Origin: Oscillospiraceae bacterium
GTDB taxonomy: Bacteria; Bacillota; Clostridia; Oscillospirales; Ruminococcaceae
Length of the DNA: 56,371 bases
Direction: 5' to 3'
Assembly: GCA_017847995.1 (NCBI GenBank)
Contig: JAGAPB010000024.1
Location: forward strand, 1 to 56,371
Position numbers and translations under genes: made by a program. Shown here one piece after another: positions 1 to 18,962 of this stretch (position 1 is its first letter; each line of letters opens with the position of its first letter). Under the pieces are notes generated by a model. That model worked only from the letters and a program-made list of their open reading frames with translations, had not been told where the DNA came from and ran no database searches.

Positions 1-446
1 CCATCGTGAAGAAGACCGCTTATTCCGATGGCGAACGCGCCAAGGTCAACTGCTACGGCGCTGACGACGTGCGTGAAGGCGTTGCCATCATGTGGCACGA
101 AGGCGTGGGCGTTTCCATCACCGGTAACTCCACCAACCCCACCCGCTTCCAGCATCCCGTAGCCGGCACTTACAAGAAGTGGTGCTTCGAGAACGGCGTT
201 AAGTACTTCTCGGTAGCTTCCGGCGGCGGCACCGGCCGTACCCTGCATCCCGACAACGTGGCTGCTGGCCCTGCCTCCTACGGCATGACCGACACCATGG
301 GTCGTATGCATGGCGACGCCCAGTTTGCCGGTTCTTCCTCTGTTCCCGCCCACGTAGAAATGATGGGCCTGATCGGCGCCGGCAACAACCCCATGGTTGG
401 TATGACTGTAGCTTGCGCTGTTGCAGTTGAAGAAGCTAACAAGTAA
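1..446 (+). CDS. GGGtGRT-family protein, C-terminal part (5' end outside the window)
   Basis: The ORF is open to the window start in the frame of 6..446. It contains the family-name motif GGGTGRT (SVASGGGTGRTLHPD) and uses host-like C-ending codons. That the true start lies upstream is inference from typical family length. Confidence 0.8.
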   Translation, partial: IVKKTAYSDGERAKVNCYGADDVREGVAIMWHEGVGVSITGNSTNPTRFQHPVAGTYKKWCFENGVKYFSVASGGGTGRTLHPDNVAAGPASYGMTDTMGRMHGDAQFAGSSSVPAHVEMMGLIGAGNNPMVGMTVACAVAVEEANK

Positions 447-448
447 GC
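351..448 (+). repeat. Left copy of a 98-bp imperfect direct repeat (last 31 codons + TAA + GC of the GGGtGRT gene)
   Basis: Hand alignment with 18840-18937 at a constant offset of 18489 gives 94/98 identical. The mismatches at 353, 407, 428 and 437 are all synonymous third-codon positions. Confidence 0.9.
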
Positions 449-500
449 CTTTGTTTAAGCCATTTTTAAGGTGGCAAGGCTGAATAAGTTCTGAAATAGA

Positions 501-550
501 GTTGGACACATCATTTTGCGTAAAACGCCAGTGATGTGTCCAACTTTTTT
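501..550 (+). terminator. Rho-independent terminator after the left GGGtGRT gene end
   Basis: A perfect 13-bp stem gttggacacatca (501-513) / tgatgtgtccaac (532-544) is followed by tttttt (545-550). Confidence 0.6.
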
Positions 551-823
551 GTTTGGGCCCATTGGAATGATGGGAGCAATGGTTTTTGAAGAAGCTGAGA
601 ATGATTTCAGAAGGTGGAATCACCTTCATATAACAAGGTGTGGGAAGGGGCATTTGTCAGGGTATGGATTAAAAAGTTAAAAGAAAATTTTCATACGTGA
701 GTAAAACTCAAAAAATCCCTTCATAGAACCAGCCCTGAGAAGAGGTGTTTTTGAAGCCTCCGGATAACAAAATTTTCAAAGTGGGGGGAAGGGATACAAA
801 TTTTTCAGATAATTAAACCCGGA

Positions 824-863
824 TAAAAAGCAATGGGCCAGAGAGGAGCTTGCCTCTCTGGCC
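824..863 (-). terminator. Terminator of the AAA+ ATPase gene
   Basis: An 11-bp stem ggccagagagg (836-846) / cctctctggcc (853-863) with a 6-nt loop. On the minus strand it is followed by CATTGCTTTTTAT. Confidence 0.5.
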
Positions 864-922
864 TTTCGCTTTACTATTCGTCTTCTATCTGAAATAAGGC
901 GCGCTTAAACAATGACAAAATA

Positions 923-2122
923 TCACGTTTCAAAATCGAGGAGCCAGTCTGCAATATCTACAATTTGCACTCCTTCATACTGGCATCTGTCATGCCTTGT
1001 GCGGGCAATTACCATTTTTGGGTAAGCGTCCTTGATCAAAAGCAATGGGGAAACCTCGCGTTCAAAGGTTTTTTCATCGCTGATATGATCCGAAACCTGT
1101 ATATAAATCTTCTCATTACGCTTAATCGCAACAAAGTCGATTTCTTTCTTGTAGAGTACTCCGGCATAGACTTCGTACCCTCTGCGCAGTAGTTCTACAG
1201 CAACCACATTTTCAAGGACTCTGCCGTAATCCATGTTCTTCGTGCCAAGCTTGGCATAACGGAATGTATGGTCGCTTAGATAATATTTATCATTACTGGA
1301 AAGATACTTTTTCCCCTTGATGTCATATCTGCGAATCTTATAAAAGGCAAAAGCGTTGCACAGATACTGAATATATGCGCTGATAGTAACATGATTGACC
1401 CTTTCCTTCAATCCACTAAAAGCATTTGTGATATTTCTTGCAGACGTCAGGTTGGAAATATTGTCCATCAGATAATCCACAAGCCTGTCCATCAACTGCA
1501 TATTGCGGATTTTGTATTTCCTTCGGATATCACGGACAATCAGCGTATTGAAAACATCGGCAATATAATCATACTTTGCTTCCTGATCCCGGTAGAGATA
1601 AGAACCTGCCATACCGCCTTCAAGTATATATCGATCCAGGGCGGTATACCTTTCTTCACAGTCAAAGTATTGCGTATATTCTCGAAATGAAAACGGAAAC
1701 ACTTTGATTTCAAATGTTCTCCCGGTAAATAACGTCGCCAAATCAGAACTCAACAGGAAAGCATTCGAACCGGTGATATAAATATCAATTTTTTCAGATG
1801 CGTGCAATCCGTTTATTGCCCTTTCAAAACCGGTGCACATCTGGACTTCATCGATCAGAACAAAATTGTCTTTTCCCTCCGTGTATCGCGCATTGATATA
1901 ATCATACAAAGGCCTGTACTCAAGCAGATGGTCAAACTCCGGCAGATTGAAGTTTATTTGAATAATATTGCAATCAGATATGTTCTGCTCAATATAGCTT
2001 TTAAATGCTTCAAGTAGCTTGGATTTTCCGCTGCGTCGGACACCTGAGATAACCTTAATGTCCGGAGTTCCGACTACATTGATAAGTTTTTCCAAATATT
2101 GAGTTCGGGTAATCAATTTCAC
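923..2122 (-). CDS. AAA+ ATPase of the AAA_14 + DUF4143 type
   Basis: 399-aa ORF with Walker A GVRRSGKS and a Walker-B-like FVLIDEVQ. The overall layout is typical of DUF4143 ATPases. A hand count of a 60-nt line gives about 33% GC, far below the neighbours. Confidence 0.8.
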   Translation of the reverse strand: MKLITRTQYLEKLINVVGTPDIKVISGVRRSGKSKLLEAFKSYIEQNISDCNIIQINFNLPEFDHLLEYRPLYDYINARYTEGKDNFVLIDEVQMCTGFERAINGLHASEKIDIYITGSNAFLLSSDLATLFTGRTFEIKVFPFSFREYTQYFDCEERYTALDRYILEGGMAGSYLYRDQEAKYDYIADVFNTLIVRDIRRKYKIRNMQLMDRLVDYLMDNISNLTSARNITNAFSGLKERVNHVTISAYIQYLCNAFAFYKIRRYDIKGKKYLSSNDKYYLSDHTFRYAKLGTKNMDYGRVLENVVAVELLRRGYEVYAGVLYKKEIDFVAIKRNEKIYIQVSDHISDEKTFEREVSPLLLIKDAYPKMVIARTRHDRCQYEGVQIVDIADWLLDFET

Positions 2123-2463
2123 GGTACATCACCTCTTACGAGGTATTGCACCACGTCTGTTTACCAAAATCAACAAAAACACGAAAGTGGTAAATAGATG
2201 CGTGGGTATGAGAGTTTCCTATACGAAGCATTGGAAGCGATTGTTTTGGAAGTTCGGCAATCACTGCTCAAAAATACTTCTGCTAAGAGTCACGCTTGCG
2301 TGTACTTATTGTATGTACCGCCAACCTTCTTAGACTTAGACTGTCGGGTTATACATGGCGTTTTTCGGTGCTCACATTTTATCCACAACGAACCCTTTTA
2401 CATAACTCTTTAATTGCCCAATATAAGCAAGAGAAGATTATTTCCGCGGGAGACCTGTAAAAA

Positions 2464-4452
2464 TCAAAGCTTCGGAATCCGCATGATAAAAACACTGCCT
2501 TTTCCTTTTTGGGAGTCCACTTCCACAGTACCGCCATGTTCCAGCGTGATAGTTCGAACCAGAAACAGCCCCAGACCATCTCCGCTTCCGTCAGGACGAG
2601 TGGTAAATCCCCGGTCAAAAACATAGGGTAGATCCTCCGGAGCGATTCCCACACCAGTATCTGCGACAGAGATTACAGCTTTCCCCTTTTCCTCCCGTAA
2701 CGAAAGAGTGATTATTCCATCCTCCGGCGTAAAAGAAAGCGCATTGTAACAGAGGTTTTCCAAAGCGGAACAAAGTCGATCTGTATTTCCTGAAACTGAC
2801 AGGTTTTCTTTCGGCAGATGGAGTTCGAATGATTGTCCATACAGTTCTACATCCGGTCGGTTATCCTCATAAAATCGGTGCAGAAGGTCATTTAAGCAGA
2901 TGGATTCATATTGGAAAACGCCTCGCTCTCCACGGGAAAATCCCTGAAGCAAACCAAAACGATCCTCCATTGTAACAACCCGTTCTGACAGGGCGTCCAG
3001 ATATCCTGTGGTTTCCCCGTCCAGAGCCACTCCGCCGCCTCTCACCAGTTCTGTGTAACTGCGTACAGCGGTAAGGGGATTTTTTAAATCATGGATAAGA
3101 TTTGCCAGAAGTTCTTTTCTTTCAGACAACAGGGTTTCCAGATACTGTGTTTTTTTGTCCACCTCCTCCTGCAGATGTTCGGTCAGCCTCAGGTTTTCCG
3201 CAGCCATTTCTCTGCCCCGACAGACCATCAGCGCGGAGAAAATGACGACCAGCAAAAACGCGCCGTATTCCTCCGGCCATGCCCCGCAGACAGGTTCAAA
3301 GCGGTTGATGGACAGCACCGCCCAGAGCTGGGAGACGCCGAAGAGGACGGCCCCCGCCAACTGCAGGCGCTGGAACCGCGCTCCGTTCAGCAGGCCGCTA
3401 AAGGAAACGCCAACCAGCCAGAAGGAATAGAACAGCTTAAAAAGCGTGGTTGCCACGCCGTATCCATTGATTAGCAGGGGTGCGTGTGGTAAAATAAAGA
3501 GCGGAAACAACGCGGTCGCCGCCGCGAAAAAGACGCAGGCGGGCAGTACCGCTTTTTGAAAAAGAGCGCCTTTCGCCCTGCCGGAAAGCGACGCCGCGAT
3601 CCATGCGGCGCAGAGCAGGATCACGCCTGCGGCCATATCCTCCAGCGCGTAGAGCAGCCGCACAGAGGGTACGCCCAGCATCCGCCAGAACGGATAGCTG
3701 ACCCGGACGGCAAAGGCGGCGCAGAGGACGCCGAACCAAAGGGCGGTTTTGTCCCTGTGAGGACGCCCAAACAGCCAAAGTGCCAGATTGGAAAGGGCTA
3801 CCGCTGCCGCACCAAAGCAGAGGACGCCGTAAACCGCCATCCGCAGCGCGATCATGCGCGCAATGGCGTCGGGGGTTCCCACCGCGGGCGGGTAATAGAG
3901 CCCGCCGTAATAGTGGTCATGGTTGGCGGCCTGTATGATGATCTCGGTGTCTCCGTCCGCCTCAAAGGTGTAAACGGTATCCCGGATATGGGCAAGGTAA
4001 GGCTCCACCGAGCCGGTTTCTCCCATGAGCTCCCCGCCGATATACACCCGGCTGGCGGAGGGGATCTCCGGCAGGAAAAGAGATAGCCGCACCGCTTCGC
4101 CGGGGTTTGTCAGTACCATGCGGTAGGTTGCCACCCCATAGGGAGTGCCCAGCGCGTCGGAGAAATTGGGATACTGACCGGCGTAGATGTGCTCCCGCGG
4201 AGCCTTGCCAGTAGTGAATTCCTCCGGGGCAAGCAGTTGGCCGGGATAATACTCCCAGCCGTCCACCAGAAAACGCGGGGAACCGGTCTGGACGGCTTCC
4301 AGCCGGCTTCGCCCTTCCCCCGCAGGCAGCGCGGCGGCATATTTGTTATCCACGGCATACAGCCACGCAAAGGCTGCGCCGCAGAGCAGCACCAGCGCGA
4401 GGATGAGGCTGCCGCCCTTTAAAATCTGCTTTTTCAAGAAATCACCTCCCAT
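2464..4452 (-). CDS. Sensor histidine kinase, 7TMR-DISM-like (extracytoplasmic domain + ~7 TM + HisKA/HATPase_c)
   Basis: It has a signal-anchor and a ~200-aa outside domain (LVDGWEYYPGQLL), followed by multiple hydrophobic helices. Kinase motifs are the H-box LIHDLKNPLTAV, N-box CYNALSFTP and G-boxes DTGVGI / GDGLGLFLV. An alternative TTG start at 4437 sits behind GGAGGTGA. Confidence 0.85.
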   Translation of the reverse strand: MGGDFLKKQILKGGSLILALVLLCGAAFAWLYAVDNKYAAALPAGEGRSRLEAVQTGSPRFLVDGWEYYPGQLLAPEEFTTGKAPREHIYAGQYPNFSDALGTPYGVATYRMVLTNPGEAVRLSLFLPEIPSASRVYIGGELMGETGSVEPYLAHIRDTVYTFEADGDTEIIIQAANHDHYYGGLYYPPAVGTPDAIARMIALRMAVYGVLCFGAAAVALSNLALWLFGRPHRDKTALWFGVLCAAFAVRVSYPFWRMLGVPSVRLLYALEDMAAGVILLCAAWIAASLSGRAKGALFQKAVLPACVFFAAATALFPLFILPHAPLLINGYGVATTLFKLFYSFWLVGVSFSGLLNGARFQRLQLAGAVLFGVSQLWAVLSINRFEPVCGAWPEEYGAFLLVVIFSALMVCRGREMAAENLRLTEHLQEEVDKKTQYLETLLSERKELLANLIHDLKNPLTAVRSYTELVRGGGVALDGETTGYLDALSERVVTMEDRFGLLQGFSRGERGVFQYESICLNDLLHRFYEDNRPDVELYGQSFELHLPKENLSVSGNTDRLCSALENLCYNALSFTPEDGIITLSLREEKGKAVISVADTGVGIAPEDLPYVFDRGFTTRPDGSGDGLGLFLVRTITLEHGGTVEVDSQKGKGSVFIMRIPKL

Positions 4453-4476
4453 TGGGGTGCCATTTTATCAGAAAGG

Positions 4477-6195
4477 ATGTTTTTGATGCAATACCGCTCT
4501 GTGGCCGCACTTATCATTGCGGTTTTGCTGCTGTTTTGCCAGCTTCCGGTCTGTGCGCAGGCCAGCGACGGGCTGACCATCGGCACTTCTCAGGCCTTGG
4601 GGAATGTTATCCGTCAGGATGAAACATATCCGTCCGAACAGGATACAGAGCCGTCGGAAGAACCGGCTCCCTCCGGATATGCTCCGCTGGATGTTCTGTC
4701 CGCCGATCACCAGCCTGACGCGCCGGTAGAGATCACACTGACGCAAAACTGGGTCATTGAGGATGCCCGGGGACTGATCACTTTGAACCCACAGATGTCC
4801 TCCTTTACCCCGGAGGACATTGCGGGGATGCTGGGATTTCCGGGCATCTCGCAACCGGTCACCATCTATACAAACGGGTTTCAAATTATAATCAAAGACG
4901 GCGGCTCGCTACTTTTGCAGGAATGGGACGCGGGCAGCGCGCAGCTCTGTGTTGAGGGCGAACACCCGGACGGCCTATTCCGGGTGGAAGGCTGCGGAAC
5001 GCTGGAACTTCATCAGGTATATGTCAAAACCTCCGGCACGGCGGTCATGCTGTGCGAGGACGCAAGCTATACATGGAGCAACGCCAACGAACGGGATTAT
5101 CCCGAACCGGTCGCAGTAGGAATAAAGGGATTTGAAGCGTTGGAGCTGTCCTCCTCTCCCAAACCGCTGCGTGTCTATGACGACACTCCGTGGTCGGACG
5201 AGCTTGCCGCAGAGCACCAGCCCGTTCTGTCGGTTTATTGCGGAGTAGATGGAGTGAGGGAAGAATTTCCGCAGGAACTGAAAGTGGTCTGGGATACTTC
5301 CTCCCAGGCGGAATCCCTTGCGGCACGGCAGGACTGTGTGCTGACAGGGACGCTGTATGATGAAAACGATCAGCCGGTGGAGAGCCGGTTTATCCCGGAG
5401 TTGCAGGTGCTTTTCCGCCAGCGCAGCCCGGTGGAGATCACAAAGGCCGCCTTTGAGCAGACCGGCGCGGGCAACTGGTTCGGGGATATCCGCTTTACCG
5501 CGCCTGCCGGTTATGAATCCATCATCCTTGAAGTATCCGAAGATGATGGGGAAAGCTGGTCGGAAGCCGAAGGGAGCGCGGCGGGATGCAAAAGAGGCGA
5601 AGGATACGCCTATTTCTTTGCAAATGACGACCGGTCACGGCTTTACCGCATCGTTGTGGAAGGCGGCCCCAATTCAGGATCGTCCGAAGCGGTAATACTG
5701 CCGGAACCGCAGGACAGCGGAAACTCTGGCAGCGGGAAAAGGCCGGGTAAAGATTCCGGCAGCAGCGATGATGACGACAACAGCAGCGACGGTGATCTGA
5801 GCGGAAACCGCGGCGGCGGCACAGCCATCGACATGCCGGACAGAAATACGGGACCCGACCTGATTAGAAACGAAAGTGAAGAAGCTTCCCGTATGAAGGG
5901 GGAAGAACGGCCGCAAATGCAGAATGGCCATCCCACCTCGGAAGGCTTCCTGCCCGAAAGGCCAAAGGATGAACAGGCGCCTTGCAAGTCCGACGGTGAG
6001 CTGACGGACGCTGCTTCGGCTCCTGCAGACACGGAAGCCAAAGAACAAAGCACCTCAGTCCTGCCAAAGGCCGTGCAGGCAGCTGTCGCTGCTGCGGGCG
6101 TTACCGTCTGTGCCGGTTCGGCCGGTATGGTATGCAGCGCAACGCTGCGGAGCAAGGTTCTGAAATGGGTATTCAGGTTGTTGCGGCGCGGTTAA
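4477..6195 (+). CDS. Secreted/membrane-anchored protein of unknown function
   Basis: 572-aa ORF with an N-terminal signal peptide (AALIIAVLLLFCQLPVCAQA) and an acidic Ser/Gly/Asp-rich low-complexity stretch. The C-terminus has a hydrophobic segment plus a basic tail (RLLRRG). The ATG at 4486 has better RBS spacing (GAAAGGA). No catalytic motif was recognised. Confidence 0.6.
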   Translation: MFLMQYRSVAALIIAVLLLFCQLPVCAQASDGLTIGTSQALGNVIRQDETYPSEQDTEPSEEPAPSGYAPLDVLSADHQPDAPVEITLTQNWVIEDARGLITLNPQMSSFTPEDIAGMLGFPGISQPVTIYTNGFQIIIKDGGSLLLQEWDAGSAQLCVEGEHPDGLFRVEGCGTLELHQVYVKTSGTAVMLCEDASYTWSNANERDYPEPVAVGIKGFEALELSSSPKPLRVYDDTPWSDELAAEHQPVLSVYCGVDGVREEFPQELKVVWDTSSQAESLAARQDCVLTGTLYDENDQPVESRFIPELQVLFRQRSPVEITKAAFEQTGAGNWFGDIRFTAPAGYESIILEVSEDDGESWSEAEGSAAGCKRGEGYAYFFANDDRSRLYRIVVEGGPNSGSSEAVILPEPQDSGNSGSGKRPGKDSGSSDDDDNSSDGDLSGNRGGGTAIDMPDRNTGPDLIRNESEEASRMKGEERPQMQNGHPTSEGFLPERPKDEQAPCKSDGELTDAASAPADTEAKEQSTSVLPKAVQAAVAAAGVTVCAGSAGMVCSATLRSKVLKWVFRLLRRG

Positions 6196-6245
6196 ATCAC
6201 AACGGGCACGTCCGGTAAGGGCATGCCTTTTCTTTTTTCAGAGGC

Positions 6246-6926
6246 TCAATCCTCACCCACAAAGCGGTAGCCTTTTCTCCGCACCGTTTCGATGTAATGG
6301 ATATCGGGACAAAGCTGATCCAGCTTCTGCCGAACTCGCGCCATACAAACCTGTATATTATGGATCCCTTTATTCACGGGGGATTTCCACACCCGGTCAT
6401 AGAGCTGCTCATAGGAGAATACCTGTCCCGGATTTTGCGCCAGAAAGGCCAGAAGATTGAATTCCAAGGTGGAGAACGGGATCGTATTGTTCTGATAGCG
6501 CACCTCTTGCAGTCCAAGGTCGATCTCCAGCAGTCCGAAACGCAGCACCTCGCGGATCTCCTGATTCAATCTGCGCTGGATCCGCAAACGTATCCTAAGC
6601 TCCAATTCCGTCAGCGAATACGGCTTTCCAAGATAGTCGTCGCCGCCTGCCATCAATCCCCGTATACGGTCATCCGTCCGTGCGTAAGCCGACAAAAAGA
6701 TTATGGGGACGCTGCTTATCTCCCGTATCTTCCGGCAAACCGCGATGCCGTCCGCACCGGGCATATCTACATCCAAAACGATAGCGTCCAATGCTGCGGA
6801 GGATGAAATCTTTAGGGCATCGGCGCCATTTTCGGCTGAAATGACCTGATAACCCTGCCTTTTCAAAAAAACAGAGTTGGTTTTTATAATATGAGGGTCA
6901 TCGTCTACTAGCAGGATCCGATACAT
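6246..6926 (-). CDS. OmpR/PhoB-family response regulator
   Basis: REC domain (ILLVDDD, VLDVDMPG, LGKP) plus a winged-helix output (ETVRRKGYRF). The ATG at 6926 is preceded by AAGGAAAGGAAG. The 97 upstream codons of track ORF 6246..7217 are judged non-coding. Confidence 0.85.
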   Translation of the reverse strand: MYRILLVDDDPHIIKTNSVFLKRQGYQVISAENGADALKISSSAALDAIVLDVDMPGADGIAVCRKIREISSVPIIFLSAYARTDDRIRGLMAGGDDYLGKPYSLTELELRIRLRIQRRLNQEIREVLRFGLLEIDLGLQEVRYQNNTIPFSTLEFNLLAFLAQNPGQVFSYEQLYDRVWKSPVNKGIHNIQVCMARVRQKLDQLCPDIHYIETVRRKGYRFVGED

Positions 6927-7040
6927 ATCTATCTTCCTTTCCTTTGGCTTTATCATACCACAAAATATCCTTCGAAAAAAACTCCGCTTGCCATGTTTCC
7001 CAAAACAGGTAAAAAGTTTTGACAAATCAAAATGGCTCGT

Positions 7041-7101
7041 CAAAAGCCGGCTTACCGCACCGGTTGTACTGCGGCAAAGCAGACGTCGGTGCAGCAGCCG
7101 G
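7041..7101 (-). terminator. Putative terminator after the SpoIIE-type phosphatase gene
   Basis: A long imperfect stem pairs ccggcttaccgcaccg (7047-7062) with cggtgcagcagccgg (7087-7101). On the minus strand it is followed by a T-run (plus-strand aaaa, 7042-7045). Confidence 0.4.
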
Positions 7102-7128
7102 CCTGATATTTGGATATAACGGAGCATT

Positions 7129-8517
7129 TTACTGAAGGATCCGCCGCCCATAATAACGCAATCCCAGCATGGTGATATCATCAAACTGAGGAGCCGCCCC
7201 AACAAACGTATCCACATCGGCTTTCACGGCTGACAAAAGCGGTTCCGGGTCATGGTCGCCATGAGCGTTCAAAACAGCTGACAGGCGCTCCTCCCCGTAA
7301 AGCTCCAAACCGGTGTCGGTGGCCTCAGTAACACCATCGGTATAAAGGTAGAGAGTGTCACCGGCGGACAGCTTCAGCGTTCCCATTCGGTAGCGGGTTC
7401 CCTCCATACCGGCCAGCACAAATCCGGAACGGCCGCGAAGAAACACAAATTCCCCGCCCGCTTGCCGGAGCAAGGGGGGATTGTGTCCGGCATTCACATA
7501 ACTCAGATGCCCTGTGGACAGCTCCAGAACTCCCATCCACACGGTAACGAATAGCCCTTCGTCATTGGATTCGCACAGCAGCTGGTTTACCTTGGCGAAA
7601 ACGGCGTCCGGCGCAGCTCCCGTCTGTGTGTGATCTTTAATCAATGTTTTGGCAATGACCATGAACAGCGCCGCCGGGACGCCCTTGCCGGAAACATCCG
7701 CGATGACCACTGCCAGATGATCGTCGTCCACCAGAAAGAAATCGTAGAAGTCGCCCCCCACTTCTTTTGCCGGCTCCATGGTTGCGAAGATGTCAAACTC
7801 CTCGCGTTCGGGGAAAGCGGGAAAGATGCAGGGAAGCATTGAGGTCTGGATATGCGTTGCCACAGCCAGCTCCGAAGCGATCTGCTGTTTGTCCATACTG
7901 TCCCTGACCTGTCGTTCCAGCAGCCTCCGGGTGCGATCCGCCAGGGTCGTGCAGACCGTCGTCAGGCCGTACAGGATCAGGCTTCTTGGCAGGATGTAAT
8001 ACAGAACCACCCGGCGGATGGTGTTGAAATTGACCACCCGGGGACCGCTGGTATCAACGGCGTAAAGCAGGTTGCTGTCCCATTCCCCCCAACAGACGCC
8101 GATGAGCAGGGAAATGGCCATGCAGATGACTGAAACAACCAGCAGCCCGCGGGAAAACCGCTTGGAATAGTAATGGGAGCCGAGGAGTATGGGGGCAGGC
8201 CAGGCGAGGATGGCATGTTTGGGAAGCGCCGCTGACAAAAGGGTGATGCCAAGGATACAGCAGAGCAATATGTAAAACTTCATCCGTGGGGAATCTCTGT
8301 CCATCTTCCTCAACAGGATCGTGGGGAGAAGGAACAGCAGAATCCCGCCGGCCCCTGCGATTGCCATAATGACATCCGGGACAATAAAGAGCCCTAAAAT
8401 ATTCAGTATCCAGATGACAGCAATCACCGCCGCAAGGACTCTCATGCACCGGGCGGCATAAAGATTGGCTTCTTTCTCATTCTCCGCAAAGGCTGCGGAG
8501 TAATCCAATTCATTCAT
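7129..8517 (-). CDS. Membrane-bound SpoIIE/PP2C-family protein phosphatase
   Basis: The N-terminal half has about 6 hydrophobic helices. The C-terminal PP2C/SpoIIE domain has the motifs GGDFYDF, VVIADVSGKG, YTDGVTE and DDITML. The track ORF starts at TTG 8544, but the ATG at 8517 is preferred. Confidence 0.85.
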   Translation of the reverse strand: MNELDYSAAFAENEKEANLYAARCMRVLAAVIAVIWILNILGLFIVPDVIMAIAGAGGILLFLLPTILLRKMDRDSPRMKFYILLCCILGITLLSAALPKHAILAWPAPILLGSHYYSKRFSRGLLVVSVICMAISLLIGVCWGEWDSNLLYAVDTSGPRVVNFNTIRRVVLYYILPRSLILYGLTTVCTTLADRTRRLLERQVRDSMDKQQIASELAVATHIQTSMLPCIFPAFPEREEFDIFATMEPAKEVGGDFYDFFLVDDDHLAVVIADVSGKGVPAALFMVIAKTLIKDHTQTGAAPDAVFAKVNQLLCESNDEGLFVTVWMGVLELSTGHLSYVNAGHNPPLLRQAGGEFVFLRGRSGFVLAGMEGTRYRMGTLKLSAGDTLYLYTDGVTEATDTGLELYGEERLSAVLNAHGDHDPEPLLSAVKADVDTFVGAAPQFDDITMLGLRYYGRRILQ

Positions 8518-8555
8518 AGCATCACCATCCTGTTCTGAAACCAAAACATCGTCGT

Positions 8556-8855
8556 TTATTGGATGGTCAGAATGTCGGTAAAGCCGGTGAGCTCAAAAAC
8601 TTCCATAACGGTCTCGTTGGCATTCATCACAACCATTGGACTGTTTTGCTTGTTCATTTGTTTCTGCGCTGCCAGAATAACCCGCAATCCCGCAGAGGAG
8701 ATGTACTCCAGCATCTCCAGATCCAAAACCAGTTCAGTCACATCATACAGCGAAGTCTTTACTTCCGCCTCCAACTGAGGAGCTGTCGTGGTATCGAGAC
8801 GTCCTTCCAGAGCCAGAGTCATGCGGGTGCCTTCCTTGTTTTTCGTGATCGTCAT
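8556..8855 (-). CDS. STAS-domain protein (anti-sigma-factor-antagonist type, SpoIIAA/RsbV-like)
   Basis: It has the conserved phosphorylatable-serine context LEYISSAGLRVIL. The ATG at 8855 is preceded by GGAGGA with 7-nt spacing, whereas the track start at 8870 has no RBS. Confidence 0.85.
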   Translation of the reverse strand: MTITKNKEGTRMTLALEGRLDTTTAPQLEAEVKTSLYDVTELVLDLEMLEYISSAGLRVILAAQKQMNKQNSPMVVMNANETVMEVFELTGFTDILTIQ

Positions 8856-8879
8856 GTCAGTATCCTCCATTTTTTATTT

Positions 8880-9494: not shown

Positions 9495-9499
9495 TTCTT

Positions 9500-11662: not shown

Positions 11663-11809
11663 AATTTTCCTCCTTGTTCCGGTGCGGAAACGGTTTGTCT
11701 GACGCCTCCGGAAGCTTTACTTCATTCCATCGATGCAAAGGCAGGATTTGTACCGTCCTTTGGCAGCGCTGCTGCAGAAGGTCAGGTGTTTTTTCGACGT
11801 CACAGGGGA

Positions 11810-12907
11810 TCACTCCAGCCTTAGTTTCATGGTCAACTCGTTTGTAAAGGGCTGTGTATGGGCTTTTCCATAAGAGATCTCTTCGCACAATCCCTTGACC
11901 AGCAGAATGGACAGATCATCCCCCTCTGCCAACGGGTCAAAGGCTGGGCCAGTGTAACGGATGGATATACGGGTATCGTTATTTTCCTCGTTGTATTCCA
12001 CCATCGTATGGATCTGAAATTCCTTTTCCATCCGGGGCAAGAGAGCCTGAATGCAGAGTTCCTCGAAGATGCTCTGCATCCGGCAGATCGTCTTCTGTCC
12101 CATTTCATGCTTGCGGCCAAACTGCTCGATCTGGCTATTAATGCCGATAAAATCATATCCATGGGAATCAATGACAGTTTCAAACACTTTCAGGCGCTGG
12201 ATAAACTGCCGGGTGCGTTCCCGCCGGGGATTGTCAAAAATCTGCTCTGGGGTACCGTCTTCATAGATCTCGCCCTGATCCATATAAAACACACGGGTGG
12301 AAACATCCCGGGCAAATTTCATTTCGTGGGTGACGATCATCATGGTCAGCCCTTGCCGGGCCAGATTGCGGATGACCGACAAAACTTCTCCCACCATAGT
12401 CGGGTCGAGGGCGGAGGTCGGTTCATCGAAAAGGACGATCTCCGGATCCATGGCGAGGGTGCGGGCGATTGCGGCCCTCTGCTTCTGTCCACCCGAAAGT
12501 TCATCCGGGAAGGCCAGAGCCTTGTCTCTCAGCCCCACCATCTGCAACAGCTCCATTCCCCTGTCGCAGGCGTCCTGCCGACTATGGCCCAAAAGGGAAA
12601 CCGGTCCTGTCATAATATTTTCAATGATGTTCATGTGGTTGAAGAGATTAAAGGACTGGAACACCATACCCATCTTGCGCCGCAGAAGATGCACCTTGCA
12701 TTTCGGATCGGTGATTGCCTGCCCATCGATGAAGATCTCGCCCGAGGTAGGCGTTTCCAGCAGGTTCAGGCATCGCAGCAGGGTGGATTTCCCAGTACCG
12801 GAAGGGCCGATGATGGAGATGACCTCCCCCTGTCCGATCTCTGCGCTCACATCCTTCAGCGGCGTGACATTGGGATACTCTTTTCTCAGATGTCGGATCG
12901 AAATCAC
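11810..12907 (-). CDS. Amino-acid ABC transporter ATP-binding protein (GlnQ-like) with a ~120-aa C-terminal degenerate RsbW-like domain
   Basis: Walker A GPSGTGKST, signature LSGGQKQR and Walker B VLFDEPTSALD. The C-terminal extension (ICRMQSIFEELCIQAL ... ISIRYTGPAFDPL ... LSILLVKGL ... NELTMKLRLE) resembles the RsbW-like protein. There is a 4-nt start/stop overlap with the upstream permease gene. Confidence 0.85.
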   Translation of the reverse strand: MISIRHLRKEYPNVTPLKDVSAEIGQGEVISIIGPSGTGKSTLLRCLNLLETPTSGEIFIDGQAITDPKCKVHLLRRKMGMVFQSFNLFNHMNIIENIMTGPVSLLGHSRQDACDRGMELLQMVGLRDKALAFPDELSGGQKQRAAIARTLAMDPEIVLFDEPTSALDPTMVGEVLSVIRNLARQGLTMMIVTHEMKFARDVSTRVFYMDQGEIYEDGTPEQIFDNPRRERTRQFIQRLKVFETVIDSHGYDFIGINSQIEQFGRKHEMGQKTICRMQSIFEELCIQALLPRMEKEFQIHTMVEYNEENNDTRISIRYTGPAFDPLAEGDDLSILLVKGLCEEISYGKAHTQPFTNELTMKLRLE

Positions 12908-15141
12908 GGCAGCTTCACCCCTTTCACCGTTCTGTTCCTCCGGTCAGGCGTCACCCTGCGTTCAATGGGACGCAGCAGAGAGGTAAGCGCCCATGCAATG
13001 ATAAAATACATAACTGCCGTGCTGATAAGAGGGAAAAATGCCTCATAAGTGCGGCTGCGGATGATATCGCTCATCTTGGTCAGATCCTCAACCGCTATGT
13101 ATCCCACCACAGAGGTCATTTTGATCAGGGAGATAAATTCCCCCTTGAAGACCGGCAGGAACTGCCTCGCCGCCTGGGGCATGACGATCTGGAAGAAGGC
13201 GCGGGATGGGGTAAATCCCAATGCCAGCGCAGCCTCTGTCTGGCCGCGATCCACCGACTGGATGCCAGTGCGGATCATTTCGCACACATAGGCTGCCAGA
13301 TTAAGCCCGAATCCGATGACGGCGACCCAGACGCCGCCCAACCCACTGCCGGAAAATACCAGATAAAACAGGATCATCAGCAGCACTACCATAGGCGTAC
13401 CCTGCAGGATGCGGATATAGGTCTGGGCAAACCCTTTTGCCAAAGAAGAACCGGAGAGCTTCATCATACAAAGCCCAAAGCCGAGAACCGATCCTAAAAT
13501 TGTGGCCGACAGAGAAATGAGAACGGTCGTTTTGACGCCCTCCACGATGAGTTTCCAGCGGCTTTCCCGGACAAAGGTTTTTTCAAAGCTCTCAGCCAGA
13601 GAGGTAAAGAAGCCCTTTTCCGGCTCTATCCCCTTGACCATCATTACCGTCCCTCCGGAATAGTCCGGATCGGAAAAATACACGCTTTCGGCCCGTTCCT
13701 CTGTTACAGCGATGCAGGAGGCGGCGATGTTGTACCGTTCCCCCAGACCGGGAATGATTGCAGCAAAGTCCATGTTGTGGATCTCCAGATCATAGCCGTA
13801 GGCTGCGCAGAAACGAGCCGCAATGTCGATTTCATATCCTACGATCTGCCCGTTTGCCAGATAGGAAAAGGGGGGATTCTCCGTGTTGGTCGCCAAATGG
13901 AGGGTACCGTTTTCCCCGGTAAGCCCGGACAGATCGATCACTTTTTTCTCTTCCTCTGGGCCGAACCAGAGACTGTCGAGTTCTGCCAGTGTACCGTCCG
14001 CCCGGAGTCCTGTCAGAAATTCATTCATCTCATCCCGAAGCCTTCCCCCTTCAGGGCTTTTGGGAAAAGCGAAGGCGTAGTCGGTCTCGCTCATCAGCTG
14101 GGGGATATGGGTCACGGCAGGATACTCCAGCTCCATGTAGCGGGCCACCGGCTCGTCCACCATAAAAGCGTCCAGCTGGCCGTTGGTTACCGAATAAGCC
14201 ATGTCCGGGATGTTGTTGTAATATAAAAGCGCCCCTTCCGGGAAGGCTTCCTGAGTCAGCGCGTCAAACACCGATCCTGTAAGGATACCTAAGCGGGTAC
14301 CGGGCACTTCCAGCTCCTCCACCGTTTGATATCGCTGGCCATTTTCTTCCGGCCCGCTCCGCACCATTATCACTGTTTCTGAAAGAAGGTATCCATCAGA
14401 AAAGCCCAGCTTCTCCCGCCGCTCGGGTGTGGCGTTGAGGTTAGCCATAATGCAGTCAATGTCGCCGCTCTCCGCCGCCGCAATGATCCCGCCGTAATCG
14501 TATACGCTGATCTCCACATCAGCGTTCAGCCAATGGGCAAACCGGTTGATCAGCTCAATATCGTAACCCGTCAAGGCAGTCCCTTCATAATAGCTGAAGG
14601 GCTGCACCACTCCGGTGGTTCCTACTCTCAGATGATACTTTGGATTTTCCGCTGTCGGAATATCCGGCATGGTGCTGTCGGCGGACCTTACCCAACGGTT
14701 ATACATCTCATCAAGGGTTCCGTCTGTCCGAAGCTCTGCCAAAAATTCGTTGATCTTGCGGGTCAAATCCGGGATCGTTGTTTTGGGCGAAACGCCCACG
14801 GCAATGTCCATGGGCTCCCCAAGCCTTCCGTCCAGCAGCCTGACGCCATCCACCCCACCGGCGATAGCAAAATCTATCATGATGCGGTCGTAGGCATAGG
14901 CGTCCAGTTCCCCTTGCTGGACGGCGGCAAAGCCGGTGACATGATTGCTGAAAAATCTTATCTCCGCTTCGGGAAGATACTGCTCTACGGCAAACATACC
15001 GGCGGAGCCCTCATCGACCCCTATCGTATACGATTTGTCGTTGAGCTGCTCAATCGTTGTTACAGCCCGTTCTGTCCTTGCGGAGCAGCCGCACAGACAG
15101 AGCAACAGCAGACCGGTAAGGATCAGTCCTTGTTTTCTCAT
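12904..15141 (-). CDS. Fused amino-acid ABC substrate-binding lipoprotein / permease (GlnP-like)
   Basis: 745-aa ORF with a lipobox LLCLCGCS. SBP_bac_3-like segments are followed by a C-terminal polar-amino-acid permease domain (RWKLIVEGVKTTVLISLSA ... EAALALGFTP). Confidence 0.85.
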   Translation of the reverse strand: MRKQGLILTGLLLLCLCGCSARTERAVTTIEQLNDKSYTIGVDEGSAGMFAVEQYLPEAEIRFFSNHVTGFAAVQQGELDAYAYDRIMIDFAIAGGVDGVRLLDGRLGEPMDIAVGVSPKTTIPDLTRKINEFLAELRTDGTLDEMYNRWVRSADSTMPDIPTAENPKYHLRVGTTGVVQPFSYYEGTALTGYDIELINRFAHWLNADVEISVYDYGGIIAAAESGDIDCIMANLNATPERREKLGFSDGYLLSETVIMVRSGPEENGQRYQTVEELEVPGTRLGILTGSVFDALTQEAFPEGALLYYNNIPDMAYSVTNGQLDAFMVDEPVARYMELEYPAVTHIPQLMSETDYAFAFPKSPEGGRLRDEMNEFLTGLRADGTLAELDSLWFGPEEEKKVIDLSGLTGENGTLHLATNTENPPFSYLANGQIVGYEIDIAARFCAAYGYDLEIHNMDFAAIIPGLGERYNIAASCIAVTEERAESVYFSDPDYSGGTVMMVKGIEPEKGFFTSLAESFEKTFVRESRWKLIVEGVKTTVLISLSATILGSVLGFGLCMMKLSGSSLAKGFAQTYIRILQGTPMVVLLMILFYLVFSGSGLGGVWVAVIGFGLNLAAYVCEMIRTGIQSVDRGQTEAALALGFTPSRAFFQIVMPQAARQFLPVFKGEFISLIKMTSVVGYIAVEDLTKMSDIIRSRTYEAFFPLISTAVMYFIIAWALTSLLRPIERRVTPDRRNRTVKGVKLP

Positions 15142-15193
15142 AACTACTCCTTTTTAATATGCAGTTTTGATGATTATACCTACCCGGACAGGG

Positions 15194-15595
15194 TTATTGG
15201 TCGATGGTTTCGTCCATGGCTGAAACTGCTGGTCCCATGCCGCCGGAAACACTTTCCAACGCGTTCTCATACAGTTCGTTGGTCGTCTCCGGATTTTCAA
15301 GTTCCTTTTTCTGATGCATATTCGGTTCCTTCTTTCCGCTCATCGTTTCAAATGGTCTGTCCAGCCATTGCCGCAGTTCTTCCGGAGAGGAGAGTCTGAT
15401 TCTCCGATCGTAGAGGACGGCCAGACCGGCTTGCCATTCTTCCAGAGTGTACCGTTCCGTGGGAATCCGGCGCAGGTGGGTGCACAGCAATCCGGCTTTT
15501 CCAAGAAACTGCAGTTCCTCCAGAGAAAGTCCGCTGCATTCTTCCAAATCAACGAGCAAAGGATCACTGCATTTACGGTTTGATAGTTTTTTCAT
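15194..15595 (-). CDS. Hypothetical protein (133 aa) with a double-glycine-like motif near the C-terminus
   Basis: The ATG at 15595 is preceded by AGGGGGTG (the track ORF starts at 15631). No known domain was recognised. The C-terminal region reads NELYENALESVSGG followed by a 14-aa tail. Confidence 0.5.
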   Translation of the reverse strand: MKKLSNRKCSDPLLVDLEECSGLSLEELQFLGKAGLLCTHLRRIPTERYTLEEWQAGLAVLYDRRIRLSSPEELRQWLDRPFETMSGKKEPNMHQKKELENPETTNELYENALESVSGGMGPAVSAMDETIDQ

Positions 15596-15646
15596 ATGCC
15601 ACCCCCTGGCAAAGTGTTTGGGGATCTTCATTGCGGCTTACGAGGG

Positions 15647-16438
15647 TCATAACGGCAAGAAGCGTTCATAAAGAAATTTGGCGAACTGCGCACTTGTATA
15701 AGCGGCAAATTTTTGATATTCGTCCGATTTTTCCCCGTTGGCATAGTCGCTGACACCCTTAATCACCAATGCGGCAGGTCGTGGATGCACAGCGTGCTCC
15801 ACCGCATATGCGACTGCATAAGATTCCATATCCAAGCCAACCGTATCCGGAAACTGCGAATGAACCTGCTTATCAAGAATTTCCTGATTTGCCACCACCA
15901 TACTGCCGCAAGCCATAGGACCTATACGGACATGGCATTGGTTTTCTGCAGACTCCGCAGCTGACTGTACATATTTTTTGAGCATGGGTTCAAGTCGGAT
16001 CGCCGCCGGCCTGGGAATAAACCCTACGGTGCCAAAGCGAATGTCACTTTCCTGTGGGCCGACGAATTTGCCTGTGACGTAGTTCCAGATCATATCGGCA
16101 ACCACGACATCGCCGTAAAACTGTTCGTCATCGCCGATCGAGGCAATCCCTGCGGCGATTCCGACGGAGATTATATAACGGGGGCGAAACCTTTGGAACA
16201 GCTTCATGGAGAGTACCGCCGCAGCAGTCATTCCCATTTCGCTCTGTTGTGCCAAAACAACAGGACAGCAGGTATGCCCGCGTTCAAATGAGGATACAAA
16301 ATAAGTCTGGGGGTCGCCATCAAACTGCACTTCCTTCCAGCTGGGATAAAGTGCTTTAGCGCCGAAGGTTTCTGTGTCAGTCGCTGTGATCAGAGCGACC
16401 GAATAATCGTACCCACTTAATGTCCTATCTTCTTTCAA
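15647..16438 (-). CDS. PNP_UDP_1-superfamily protein, MTA/SAH-nucleosidase-like
   Basis: 263-aa ORF. Motifs match MTAN-type nucleosidases by eye: N-terminal ALITATDTE, GLDMESYAVAYA (M-E pair) and VIKGVSDYANG (S-D-x-A). Confidence 0.7.
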   Translation of the reverse strand: MKEDRTLSGYDYSVALITATDTETFGAKALYPSWKEVQFDGDPQTYFVSSFERGHTCCPVVLAQQSEMGMTAAAVLSMKLFQRFRPRYIISVGIAAGIASIGDDEQFYGDVVVADMIWNYVTGKFVGPQESDIRFGTVGFIPRPAAIRLEPMLKKYVQSAAESAENQCHVRIGPMACGSMVVANQEILDKQVHSQFPDTVGLDMESYAVAYAVEHAVHPRPAALVIKGVSDYANGEKSDEYQKFAAYTSAQFAKFLYERFLPL

Positions 16439-16509
16439 GAATCAAACCACCCTTCTTTTCTGCTGCTTTCATTATAAAATCGGTAAAAGGCTTTTCAATG
16501 CTTTTGTCC

Positions 16510-16565
16510 AAAATGTGACGAGCCAGTGACTTTTCAGAAGAAAAATCACTGGCTCGTCACATTTT
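16510..16565. repeat. Perfect 20-bp inverted repeat with a 16-nt spacer (bidirectional terminator-like or operator)
   Basis: aaaatgtgacgagccagtga (16510-16529) and tcactggctcgtcacatttt (16546-16565) are exact reverse complements. The A-tract / stem / T-tract layout is symmetrical. Confidence 0.7.
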
Positions 16566-16875
16566 CCTGATTTACGACACAGTTCGCTTTGATGTCGCTA
16601 TAATGAAAATCAGGGACGCACGGGTATCTGTTCCACCAACCGAACGCTTGGAAAACATTTGGTCAGGTCTTGTGGTCACTATTTTGATTACAGCTGCGGA
16701 AATGCTTCTGGCTACAACTCTGTGCCCAATCGGAATTCTTCTGCCGGAAACACAGAACTAGCAGGGGTAACCGGCTATAAGGCTGCGACTGCTGCGTTCT
16801 AAAACAAAACGGATAGAGTATACCAATGACCACAACGGCAATCATTTAAAATTTCTTATGTAAACGGGGGCTCTT

Positions 16876-18378
16876 ATGAAAACCTTTCTTTCAGGACTTT
16901 TGATTCTTGTTATTGGAGCGGCCCTTTATGGAAAGCTCTGCGAAAAAGTGTTCGGTCCCGATGACCGGAAAACACCGGCCTTCACCAAACAGGATGGCGT
17001 AGACTACATCCCCATGAAGGGGTGGAAAAACAGTCTCATCAACCTGCTGAACATTGCGGGCACCGGCCCCATCTTTGGCCCGATCCAGGGCATCTTATTC
17101 GGGCCGCTGGCCTTTATCACGATTCCTGTCGGCAATATCATCGGCGGCGCCATGCACGACTACTTCTCCGGCATGATCTGCCTGCGGGACGGCGGCAGCC
17201 AGATGTCTGAAACCGTGCGCCGGTACAGCAACCGGGGTGTTTTCTCGGTCTATCAGGTCTTTTGCAGTGTGCTGCTTTTGCTGGTGGGTGCGGTATTCAT
17301 CTACACTCCCGGGGACATCGCCGCCACCCAGGTATTCGGATTTGACGGCAAGGCCACCAGCGTTTCCACCTGGGTCATCTATGGTGTGATCTTTGCTTAC
17401 TATCTTGTAGCCACAGTATTTCCCATCGACAAGATCATCGGCAGGATCTATCCCATCTTCGGAGCAGTTCTCCTGTTTTCCGCCGTGGGTATATTTATCG
17501 GCATATTCGTCAAGGGCTATCCTCTGACCGAGCTTTGGGGCGTCTGGGATGTGCCGCTGGCCTTTGTAGTGCAGGATGGCGCCCGGACTGCCTTCAGCTA
17601 CGCCGACTATTTTACGGCGGAACGGTTTTTTCCCACCTTCTTCATCACCGTGGCCTGCGGAATCCTGTCCGGCTTTCACTCTACTCAGACAGCGATCATC
17701 TCCCGTACTATGCGCAGCGAACGGCAGGGTCGTATGACCTTTTATAATATGATGGTGCTGGAAGGTTTCATCGCCATGGTCTGGGCAGCCGCCGCGATGG
17801 GAGTCTACAATCTGGGCCTTCAGGCGGCGGACGCTAACCTGTATTCCTCCACCGTGGGAATTGTATGCCGGGATATTCTGGGAGATATAGGCGGCGTTGT
17901 TGCCCTGTTGGGTATTATTATCCTGCCCATTACATCCGGCGACACCGCTCTGCGGGGTCTGCGGCTGGCCATCGCGGAGTCTCTCCATCTGGATCAGAGC
18001 AATGGGAAAAAGCGTATCGCCCTCTCTGGCGTGATTTTCACTCTGGTGGCGGTCATTATGGTATTCGCCAAGCTCTCGCCTGACGGCTTCAAGATCCTTT
18101 GGCGATATTTCGCATGGTCCAATCAGACATTATCCTTATTCGCATTCCTTGTAATTTCTGTATGGATGTTTAAAAACGGAAAACGGCGTTTTGTATGGAT
18201 GCCCCTCATTCCCGGGACATTTTATGCCTTTGCTACCGTTAGTTACATTATGAGCGCAAAAATCGGCTTCAATCTCCCGTGGACGGTGTCCTACATCATC
18301 GGAGGGGTTGCGGCGGCCGCCTATCTGGCTGTGATCCTCTGGTACGGGAACAGGAGGGCCGCACTCAGACGCCTGTAA
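16876..18378 (+). CDS. cstA: Carbon starvation protein A family transporter
   Basis: 500-aa polytopic membrane ORF. The N-terminus (GKLCEKVFGPDDRKTPA ... GWKNSLINLLNIAGTGPIFGPIQG) is typical of CstA-family proteins. Confidence 0.85.
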   Translation: MKTFLSGLLILVIGAALYGKLCEKVFGPDDRKTPAFTKQDGVDYIPMKGWKNSLINLLNIAGTGPIFGPIQGILFGPLAFITIPVGNIIGGAMHDYFSGMICLRDGGSQMSETVRRYSNRGVFSVYQVFCSVLLLLVGAVFIYTPGDIAATQVFGFDGKATSVSTWVIYGVIFAYYLVATVFPIDKIIGRIYPIFGAVLLFSAVGIFIGIFVKGYPLTELWGVWDVPLAFVVQDGARTAFSYADYFTAERFFPTFFITVACGILSGFHSTQTAIISRTMRSERQGRMTFYNMMVLEGFIAMVWAAAAMGVYNLGLQAADANLYSSTVGIVCRDILGDIGGVVALLGIIILPITSGDTALRGLRLAIAESLHLDQSNGKKRIALSGVIFTLVAVIMVFAKLSPDGFKILWRYFAWSNQTLSLFAFLVISVWMFKNGKRRFVWMPLIPGTFYAFATVSYIMSAKIGFNLPWTVSYIIGGVAAAAYLAVILWYGNRRAALRRL

Positions 18379-18839
18379 ATGAGGGTGGACAAACGCCCTG
18401 ACACTGAAATCCACCGCTGCGGATCCGGATGGGAAAGTCCTCGCCTCCTTCGGCACGCCTATCCCCGAGGAGGAATTTGAATCGCTGATGAATGAGCGTA
18501 TCGGCGGCTATGAAAAGGCTCACACAATGCGTTTTTACCTTGTGTGAGCTGGCTTTGTAGATGTTTGAGGGCGGCGGCCGCCGCACTTAACAGAGATGAA
18601 TAGAGATGCTGGATTCGTTGTGCTTTTGGAACAAAGATGTTTGTTGTTCAGCAAAATTGTATCGTGAACAAAGAATGATGTATGATAGATGTACAAACAA
18701 ATAAAAAAGGTGTGCCCAAGCAATTAGAATCTGCCAAAGTCCATGCTTCTCTTGGAAAAAAAGGATGCTCTTAAAAGGCTGATGGAATCAAGAGAATCCT
18801 CGTTCCCGCTCTTTTCTGAAAGCCGCCACAGGCGGATTT

Positions 18840-18937
18840 CATGTAGAAATGATGGGCCTGATCGGCGCCGGCAACAACCCCATGGTTGGTATGACCGTAG
18901 CTTGCGCTGTTGCAGTAGAAGAAGCCAACAAGTAAGC
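18840..18937 (+). repeat. Right copy of the 98-bp direct repeat (orphan 3' end of a GGGtGRT gene: 31 codons + TAA)
   Basis: See 351-448. It encodes HVEMMGLIGAGNNPMVGMTVACAVAVEEANK*. Upstream of 18840 there is no homology and no open frame. Confidence 0.9.
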
Positions 18938-18962
18938 AATATTTCCCCAAGAGCAAAACAAA

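Follow-up and report, generated by a model that had tools for sequence, protein, structure and literature searches.

Elements mobilised by tyrosine recombinases are known to integrate at the 3' ends of genes, as ICESt1 and ICESt3 do at fda and various islands do at guaA, rplL, rpsI and tmRNA. A different kind of variable locus, the chromosomal hotspot between core genes, whose contents are turned over by homologous recombination in the flanks, was reportedly described by Oliveira et al. in 2017. Two further papers describe ssrA-specific islands in Dehalococcoides (PMC3146451) and the cis-mobilizable elements (CIMEs), which were defined for streptococcal islands derived from integrative and conjugative elements (ICEs) or integrative and mobilizable elements (IMEs) (PMC5704250). 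The locus considered here lies at the start of a contig of 56,371 nucleotides (JAGAPB010000024.1) from an Oscillospiraceae bacterium, the whole of which is referred to below as the window. Positions 449-18839 hold an island directly behind the gene for GGGtGRT, an uncharacterised protein named in gut and rumen metaproteome and expression papers. The island was probably acquired horizontally, by recombination between attachment (att) sites within the terminal ~95 bp of the GGGtGRT gene, and is best read as a CIME-like descendant, without integrase, of an element that integrates site-specifically at this gene end; a probability of about 0.65 is assigned to this reading. The papers listed by a literature search for GGGtGRT are mostly proteomic, metaproteomic and expression studies and none concerns integration; the GGGtGRT 3' end therefore appears to be unreported as an att site.

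The island is bounded by a direct repeat of 98 nt (351-448 and 18840-18937), recovered by a repeat search of the window, in which 94 of 98 positions (96%) are identical at a spacing of 18489 bp; exactly two copies of the GGGtGRT 3' end are present in the window, and there is no third. The four differences, at positions 353, 407, 428 and 437, all fall at third codon positions and are all synonymous, so that both copies encode the peptide HVEMMGLIGAGNNPMVGMTVACAVAVEEANK. The left copy completes the GGGtGRT reading frame (Pfam PF14057) and has its own terminator behind it, while the right copy is not preceded by any reading frame homologous to the GGGtGRT gene, its homology to that gene stopping abruptly at 18839/18840, and leads through a shared terminator-like hairpin to the convergent xth gene. 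The original prediction, made from the bare sequence, had described the repeat and its offset, the four silent differences, the completed gene on the left and the orphan gene end on the right in these same terms. It had also allowed that the repeat might be an artefact of assembly, but the left junction was found again in the independent assemblies L169, L170 and L185, and the right junction in L164 (contigs other than the window are designated by L numbers). Since the junctions recur in four independent assemblies the repeat is not an assembly artefact, nor, given the four sites at which its copies differ, is it a collapse made in assembly.

The unoccupied form of the locus can be recognised in relatives. 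The closest homologues of the window xth, at 93% amino-acid identity, lie on two short contigs, L083 and L082, and in L083 only a 111-bp spacer containing two hairpins separates the GGGtGRT stop codon from convergent xth. The expectation that relatives lacking the island would have GGGtGRT next to xth thus holds in L083; the more literal form of the forecast, in which the stop codon would be followed at once by the window sequence from 18938 onward, does not, for the L083 spacer has diverged and its alignment to the window reaches only 18945. A metagenome scan with xth returned further relatives at 69-74% only, none with GGGtGRT nearby, and an exact look-up found neither the window xth protein nor its AAA_14 protein on record. 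L067, in which GGGtGRT and xth are 8.5 kb apart, was considered as an occupied site and rejected, the interval consisting of housekeeping genes (serA/serC-like, ppx, thiT). In L082, in other respects an empty-site relative in which xth also adjoins GGGtGRT, an AT-rich insert of about 0.7 kb (2185-2973) with a 150-aa open reading frame (ORF) directly follows the GGGtGRT stop; the ORF has no Pfam or PADLOC match, and because the insert shows no gene-end duplication it is taken to have arrived by a different route.

The same gene end has been put to use in other Clostridia. Among 80 species representatives fetched by the GGGtGRT C-terminus, four loci have part of the gene end repeated further downstream in the same orientation: L034 (repeat of 93 bp, spacing 8.5 kb), L048 (67 bp, 7.4 kb), L006 (positions 10379-14814; at least 117 bp, 4.3 kb) and L041 (835-1629; 45 bp, 0.7 kb). 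In L034 the gene for a 315-aa tyrosine recombinase starts 146 bp past the GGGtGRT stop and is followed by genes for a WYL/WCX regulator and a small serine resolvase; in L048 a 432-aa tyrosine integrase gene, unrelated to that of L034, starts 117 bp past the stop; and in both the insert closes with an orphan gene end. Integrases of the L034 type also lie directly after GGGtGRT in L056, L043 and L079, the last being 79.5% identical and having the same integrase-WYL-resolvase order, and the start of the integrase gene falls 117-146 bp past the stop in L034, L079 and L048 alike. The nearest NCBIfam models for the L034 and L048 integrases are XerA/XerC/XerD-type recombinases, below the equivalog cut-offs. 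Among the ORFs scanned in the sister elements L034 and L079, which include integrase, WYL/WCX regulator and resolvase, there is no relaxase. Orphan ends start about 96, 66 or 55 bp before the gene end, and since they fall into such classes several element families at one site are suggested. The GGGtGRT 3' end is a recurrent bacterial attachment site (attB), addressed in the 80 species sampled by at least two unrelated tyrosine integrase lineages and by several integrase-less inserts. None of the 80 loci shares an island gene with the window. The insert of L006 encodes a protein kinase, a BspA-type leucine-rich-repeat protein and a helix-turn-helix (HTH) regulator, with no integrase among the ORFs scanned between the repeats, and its repeat also spans the downstream terminator and promoter region; the 0.7-kb insert of L041 is too short for an integrase gene.

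The strongest link between the window and these elements lies at the right junction. A hairpin abuts the orphan gene end (Table 1); its motif is unique in the window, where no chance match is expected. The 26 nt directly upstream of the orphan are identical at 22 of 26 positions between the window and L034 (GAAAGCCGCCACAGGCGGATTTCATG versus GAAAGACGCCGAAGGCGGCTTTCATG) and fold in both into the same stem-loop (the GAAAGnCGCCnnnGGCGGnTTTC hairpin). The two orphans begin at the same His codon, written CAT in both where every intact gene has CAC, and both have ACC where their intact partners have ACT. A binomial estimate places the chance of such a fixed-register match at ~1e-7 to 1e-10. Judged from sequence, the window attR is thereby shown to be homologous to the attR of the L034 element, which belongs to another genus. 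A site-specific origin is preferred because an illegitimate joint would not be expected to recreate a junction found in an integrase-bearing element of a different genus.

The distribution of the four differences between the copies is also informative. The left copy (attL) has host-type C353 and T407, as in all intact genes, together with T428 where empty-site relatives have A; the right copy (attR), in left-copy numbering, has orphan-type T353 and C407, with the host-type base at 428. T353 and C407 are common to the orphan of L164 and occur in no intact gene examined, and the host allele reconstructed from these positions (C, T, A, C) equals that of L082 at 4/4 sites. The pattern suggests that both copies are chimeric, the products of a single reciprocal crossover between 407 and 428, in which case the left copy would not be wholly element-derived nor the right copy wholly ancestral. 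The original prediction had taken the right end for the ancestral arrangement; this stands for the xth neighbour, as L083 attests, but probably does not extend to the whole of the repeat copy itself, which is orphan-type at 353 and 407 and seems to be chimeric.

That the island is compositionally foreign to the genome in which it now resides is evident from its genes. G+C content at third codon positions (GC3) is 0.44-0.66 (mean 0.59) in the 14 island genes and 0.62-0.85 (mean 0.78) in 29 flank genes (Mann-Whitney p = 3e-7), the flank being core chromosome with genes for AspRS, HisRS, ArgJ, argininosuccinate lyase, FTHFS and RodA/FtsW. Codon fractions differ accordingly, at 0.38 in the island versus 0.10 in the flank for CCG, 0.36 versus 0.17 for CGG, 0.25 versus 0.02 for GGA, 0.44 versus 0.92 for ACC, 0.34 versus 0.82 for CCC and 0.39 versus 0.83 for GGC; as a group CCG, CGG, GGA, GCG and ACA/ACG stand at 0.2-0.4 in the island and are almost never used in the flank. 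The distinct codon style of the island and its AT-rich start (449-2463, 40% GC) had both been read from the letters, with the proviso that the contrast might vanish once computed; it did not.

The same island is present in a second host. Seventeen other contigs align to it at 98.5-99.8%, the pairwise BLAST identities among all copies being 98.2-99.9%; the OmpR-type regulator protein is identical in L169, L170, L172, L175 and L178, and 65 blocks of a public collection contain an identical STAS protein. Samples in which the island occurs include ENA ERZ28654337 and ERZ28654462 and JGI 3300029305 and 3300031555. L164 carries the right end of the island with the orphan copy, followed by a native-type GGGtGRT terminator as in L083, and its flank genes beyond an AIPR/AbiU-like gene are those of the window, at only 86-87.5% identity. 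L164 and L169 come from different samples, and because they are identical over their 3176-bp overlap they are read as the two junctions, right and left, of the island in a single second host, B, to be distinguished from the window's host, W, and the empty-site lineage, C. For the F420-ligase-like flank gene the identities are 87.5% between W and B, 84-85.6% between W and C and 82-83% between B and C, values on which W, B and C are taken to be three species-level backgrounds, two of them carrying islands that differ by ~1%. The island's codon usage is foreign to both B and W. That the island might be compositionally native to B was considered, the flank GC3 of B (0.58-0.68) being similar, but was rejected in that the codon preferences of B are as unlike those of the island as are the window's. 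Because the island is ~1% divergent against ~13% in the flanks, and because its codon usage is foreign to both hosts, it would appear to have crossed the species boundary recently, long after the hosts diverged. The orphan of host B has the non-synonymous changes V>G and M>R, which, being non-synonymous, fit a dead gene end. CstA homologues at 81-89% identity were found in unrelated contexts, with no older version of the island among them.

Some copies vary in ways that bear on cargo and locus. In host B, L169 and L170 lack the sequence corresponding to window 801-1789 (989 bp), so that the C-terminal two-thirds of the gene matching PDC-S01, a candidate anti-phage defence family, is gone; since it is partly deleted in these copies, this candidate defence gene is dispensable cargo. 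In L164:3284-5609, compared with 18938-20017 of the window, xth is absent, and the native GGGtGRT terminator and the F420-ligase-like gene enclose an AIPR/AbiU-like abortive-infection gene of GC3 0.38, which makes a second variable segment, independent of the island, at this locus. An apparent insertion of ~140 bp in L185 proved to be a scaffold gap, a run of N.

No recombinase was found in the island, as had been claimed. Pfam searches of every island ORF, including the three of unassigned function, turned up no domain of an integrase, resolvase, transposase, relaxase or phage protein; the four larger intergenic stretches, translated in six frames, yielded no recombinase domain even at E up to 10; and tblastn with the L034 and L048 integrases, users of the same site, gave no match in the window. 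Phage structural, packaging, replication and satellite-type domains are likewise absent from the island by Pfam, and scans of a viral-contig collection were empty for a 48-nt pattern from the repeat, for the attR hairpin pattern and for the L034 integrase; the 48-nt pattern had no match in metagenome contigs either. A prophage or phage satellite was rejected on these grounds. So was an ICE or IME, in that the island has no integrase, relaxase or type IV secretion system of its own and its Pfam content is one of kinases, phosphatases and transporters.

The proposed course of events is as follows. The element brings its own copy of the gene end, so that integration rebuilds the gene as attL and leaves an orphan as attR. 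The island family would dock at the GGGtGRT end normally with the gene for a small XerC/D-like tyrosine integrase immediately behind the reconstituted stop codon; the island would be descended from, or assembled on, such an integrase-bearing element, and would since have lost the integrase, whose position may now be taken by the AT-rich block with the PDC-S01 candidate defence gene. For movement between species, a cognate integrase acting in trans and RecA recombination of the gene-end copies with a recipient GGGtGRT gene are about equally likely. An excised circle would carry the predicted attP junction '...GAAAGCCGCCACAGGCGGATTTCATGTAGAA...AACAAGTAAGCCTTTGTTTAAGCC...', in which the right end is joined to the left end through one repeat copy.

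Several observations weigh against this account and are set out together here. In the island neither an integrase remnant nor a relaxase or transfer gene can be detected, for which reason descent from an integrase-bearing element is read from att-site homology only. The cognate integrase was not found within the 56-kb window, nor a circular or attP form in pattern scans of viral and metagenome collections. The similarity between the ends of the window island and the L034 element is limited to ~26-50 nt beside the orphan, with no cargo gene in common, and candidate arm-type repeats common to the two right ends were rejected when their shared 9-mers proved to be within the range of shuffled controls. 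The argument from chimeric copies draws on four sites and on relatives ~10% diverged. Finally, homologous recombination is active at this locus and could explain the spread between species without an integrase.

This last point gives the best-placed alternative, which concerns the present movement step only: after a single ancient integration, the island would spread solely by RecA double crossover in flanking homology, with the GGGtGRT gene as left arm and the 98-bp orphan, pairing with the recipient's gene end, as right arm. The nucleotide sequence of GGGtGRT is 91-97% identical among the three host lineages where neighbouring genes are 82-87% identical; no integrase is within reach by six-frame or tblastn search; integrase-less inserts with gene-end repeats occur also in L006 and L041; and the gene is patchily mosaic. 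In the comparison of the window with L169, positions 110-256 are identical and 257-359 differ at 10 sites (10%), and the comparisons among the window, L082, L083, L169 and L170 indicate that the GGGtGRT gene is a recombination mosaic in this group. Against this alternative, the low-divergence tract that includes the island, in the comparison with host B (L169/L170), starts at ~360, just inside the left 98-bp copy and not further upstream in the 1-kb gene, a placing of the breakpoint expected only about one time in ten, and an arm of 98 bp that contains mismatches makes a poor substrate. Because the gene is mosaic, the boundary at ~360 should not be over-read. On balance spread by flanking recombination seems possible but rather unlikely. 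Two patches in the gene may be recorded here: one private to the window at 257-329, in comparison with L082, L083, L169 and L170, and one of 12 substitutions, some changing amino acids, at 161-215 in L082.

Homology-facilitated illegitimate recombination, in which donor DNA anchored in GGGtGRT was joined at its far end 98 bp before the recipient's stop codon, would yield the same topology of intact gene, insert and orphan end without any recombinase, and is in keeping with the abrupt end of homology at 18839/18840. It is nevertheless very improbable: the joint shares its orphan start codon, the CAT change and the upstream hairpin with L034; orphan ends with adjacent integrases recur at GGGtGRT; and the right copy, which should be wholly of recipient type, has the orphan-only T353 and C407. 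Of the two origins left open by the original prediction, a decayed or satellite element is accordingly favoured, and import by homologous recombination with an illegitimate join disfavoured by the L034-type junction. That the region is ancestral and was deleted in relatives between the repeats, or is an artefact of assembly or duplication, can hardly be credited, for although direct repeats are able to mediate deletion and contig L165/L169 stops 10 bp short of the right repeat, repeats being where assemblers break off, the codon usage of the island is foreign to both host backgrounds, its copies are ~99% identical between hosts whose flanks differ by ~13%, and the junctions stand in four independent assemblies with repeat copies that differ at four sites.

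Table 1. Features of the repeat, the island and its immediate surroundings (window coordinates)
Feature	Position	Strand	Evidence or remark
GGGtGRT gene, 3' part	6-446	+	Target gene; ORF runs off window start; TAA at 444-446; Pfam PF14057, E 1.8e-89
Putative attL, left repeat copy	351-448	+	Completes GGGtGRT ORF
AT-rich left block of island	449-2463		40% GC; position where related elements hold the integrase
Intrinsic terminator hairpin and T-run	498-553	+	Behind rebuilt gene end; -30.2 kcal/mol, z -7.2, 0/200 shuffles fold as well
AAA_14/DUF4143 ATPase	923-2122	-	Pfam AAA_14 3.9e-30, DUF4143 4.6e-18; PADLOC PDC-S01 E 6.3e-146; GC3 0.44
Sensor histidine kinase	2464-4452	-	Pfam HisKA, HATPase_c
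569-aa conserved protein, function unassigned	4486-6195	+	Between kinase and regulator; gene call present in every island copy
OmpR-type response regulator, 236 aa	6246-6956	-	Pfam Response_reg, Trans_reg_C
Partner-switching module	7129-9910	-	Four genes; Pfam
SpoIIE/PP2C phosphatase	7129-8517	-	Pfam; partner-switching module
STAS antagonist	8556-8855	-	Pfam; partner-switching module
Unknown 199-aa protein	8880-9479	-	Within partner-switching module
HATPase_c_2 anti-sigma-type kinase	9500-9910	-	Pfam; partner-switching module
SDF-family symporter	10070-11662	-	Pfam; NCBIfam below cut-off: DctA/SstT/GltP
ABC ATPase	11810-12907	-	Pfam
Fused polar-amino-acid binding protein and permease	12904-15141	-	Pfam
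Unknown 133-aa protein	15194-15595	-	ORF
PNP_UDP_1 nucleosidase	15647-16438	-	Pfam 8.3e-18; weak NCBIfam matches to MTA/SAH nucleosidase
CstA-family transporter	16876-18378	+	Last island gene; Pfam CstA 1.2e-40
Non-coding right arm	18379-18839		Identity with L164 ~96%; 10-bp indel in L164
Conserved hairpin GAAAGCCGCCACAGGCGGATTTC	18818-18840	+	Abuts orphan gene end
Putative attR, orphan copy of GGGtGRT 3' end	18840-18937	+	Repeat comparison
Bidirectional terminator-like hairpin	18965-18983	both	Between orphan end and xth
xth (exodeoxyribonuclease III)	18996-19745	-	Ancestral downstream neighbour, start of core flank; Pfam Exo_endo_phos 4e-33; GC3 0.79

The genes listed in Table 1 show the cargo to be a nutrient-scavenging and signalling island, with a two-component system, a partner-switching module and transporters of the amino-acid, dicarboxylate and CstA types. 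The ABC (ATP-binding cassette) genes have below-cut-off NCBIfam matches to GlnH and to cystine and arginine ABC components; the CstA protein has a 99% identical homologue, P0121, in a cluster of 109 members; and the 569-aa protein has no match in Pfam, NCBIfam or PADLOC. The right arm has no Pfam match in six frames and no Rfam match, and no RNA family of Rfam was found anywhere in the window. The short repeats that had been pointed out in this arm, gaacaaagatg (18629) and gaacaaagaatg (18666), are both present, with no sign found that they are significant. A 26-nt inverted repeat, 96% complementary with a 4-nt spacer, lies at 16510-16565, between the divergently oriented nucleosidase gene and cstA; other island copies have it too, and it may be an operator or a bidirectional terminator. 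The histidine kinase gene, intact in the window, is called as two pieces in L184 (818-2791) and L185 (2514-4486), split at different points in contigs otherwise 99.7-99.8% identical, which may be either real frameshift decay or assembly error.

Two features lie further into the window. At ~29000 the GC skew switches sign, with a cumulative minimum near 29 kb; an HTH_3/CI-repressor-like gene occupies 29056-30117, and the gene orientation is unlike that of a simple replication origin. At 54000-56371 the GC content falls to 39-48% with short ORFs only, and the end of the window may be the edge of another foreign insert.

If the preferred reading is right, the GGGtGRT 3' end joins the known attachment sites of integrative elements. 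The GGGtGRT protein is 86-93% identical across many Clostridia and Akkermansia metagenome-assembled genomes (MAGs), and the gene is far better conserved across phyla than its neighbours; since its nucleotide sequence is 80-87% identical even among distant gut taxa, the site could offer a broad-range landing pad to genes that move through gut and rumen communities. The island itself would be a clean natural case of an element that has recently passed a species boundary without a recombinase of its own, and the gap between ~1% divergence in the island and ~13% in the flanks makes the choice between integrase in trans and homologous recombination directly testable. Orphan GGGtGRT ends offer an easy marker for accessory and defence islands in Clostridia MAGs. 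A bolder proposal, which at present looks doubtful, is that the ~95-bp gene-end mimic is a portable docking module, such that any DNA carrying it could excise as a circle and re-insert in the near-universal, strongly conserved GGGtGRT gene of gut bacteria only distantly related to one another, using integrases borrowed from unrelated resident elements or RecA alone; were it true, the inserts of the window, L006 and L041 would represent a self-propagating class able to cross species or even phylum boundaries.

In relation to the systems introduced at the outset, the interval behind GGGtGRT resembles a hotspot in being variable, empty in L083, with a 0.7-kb insert in L082, with the island in the window and with the island plus an Abi gene in place of xth in L164, and in having collected defence-type genes (PDC-S01, AIPR/AbiU-like) beside a mosaic flanking gene. 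The hotspot model alone, however, gives no reason to expect an exact duplication of the gene end whose junction is also that of integrase-bearing elements. The integrase beside the att site that marks integrative elements of gene 3' ends, present in the sisters L034, L079 and L048, is absent from the island, which otherwise has what such elements have: direct repeats of the gene end that rebuild the gene at attL and leave an orphan at attR, a foreign composition, and relatives in which the site is empty. From the described CIMEs the island differs in that no ICE or IME module remnant is detectable in it, so that descent from an ICE or IME is only a candidate, in that there is no tandem accretion with an intact adjacent element in the 56-kb window or in L164, and in its target gene, GGGtGRT, and its hosts, uncultured Oscillospirales-like Clostridia. 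It agrees with them in having kept attL and attR, both copies of the target gene's 3' end, while integrase and transfer genes are absent, in having integrase-bearing relatives at the same site, and in occurring as the same element in more than one host.

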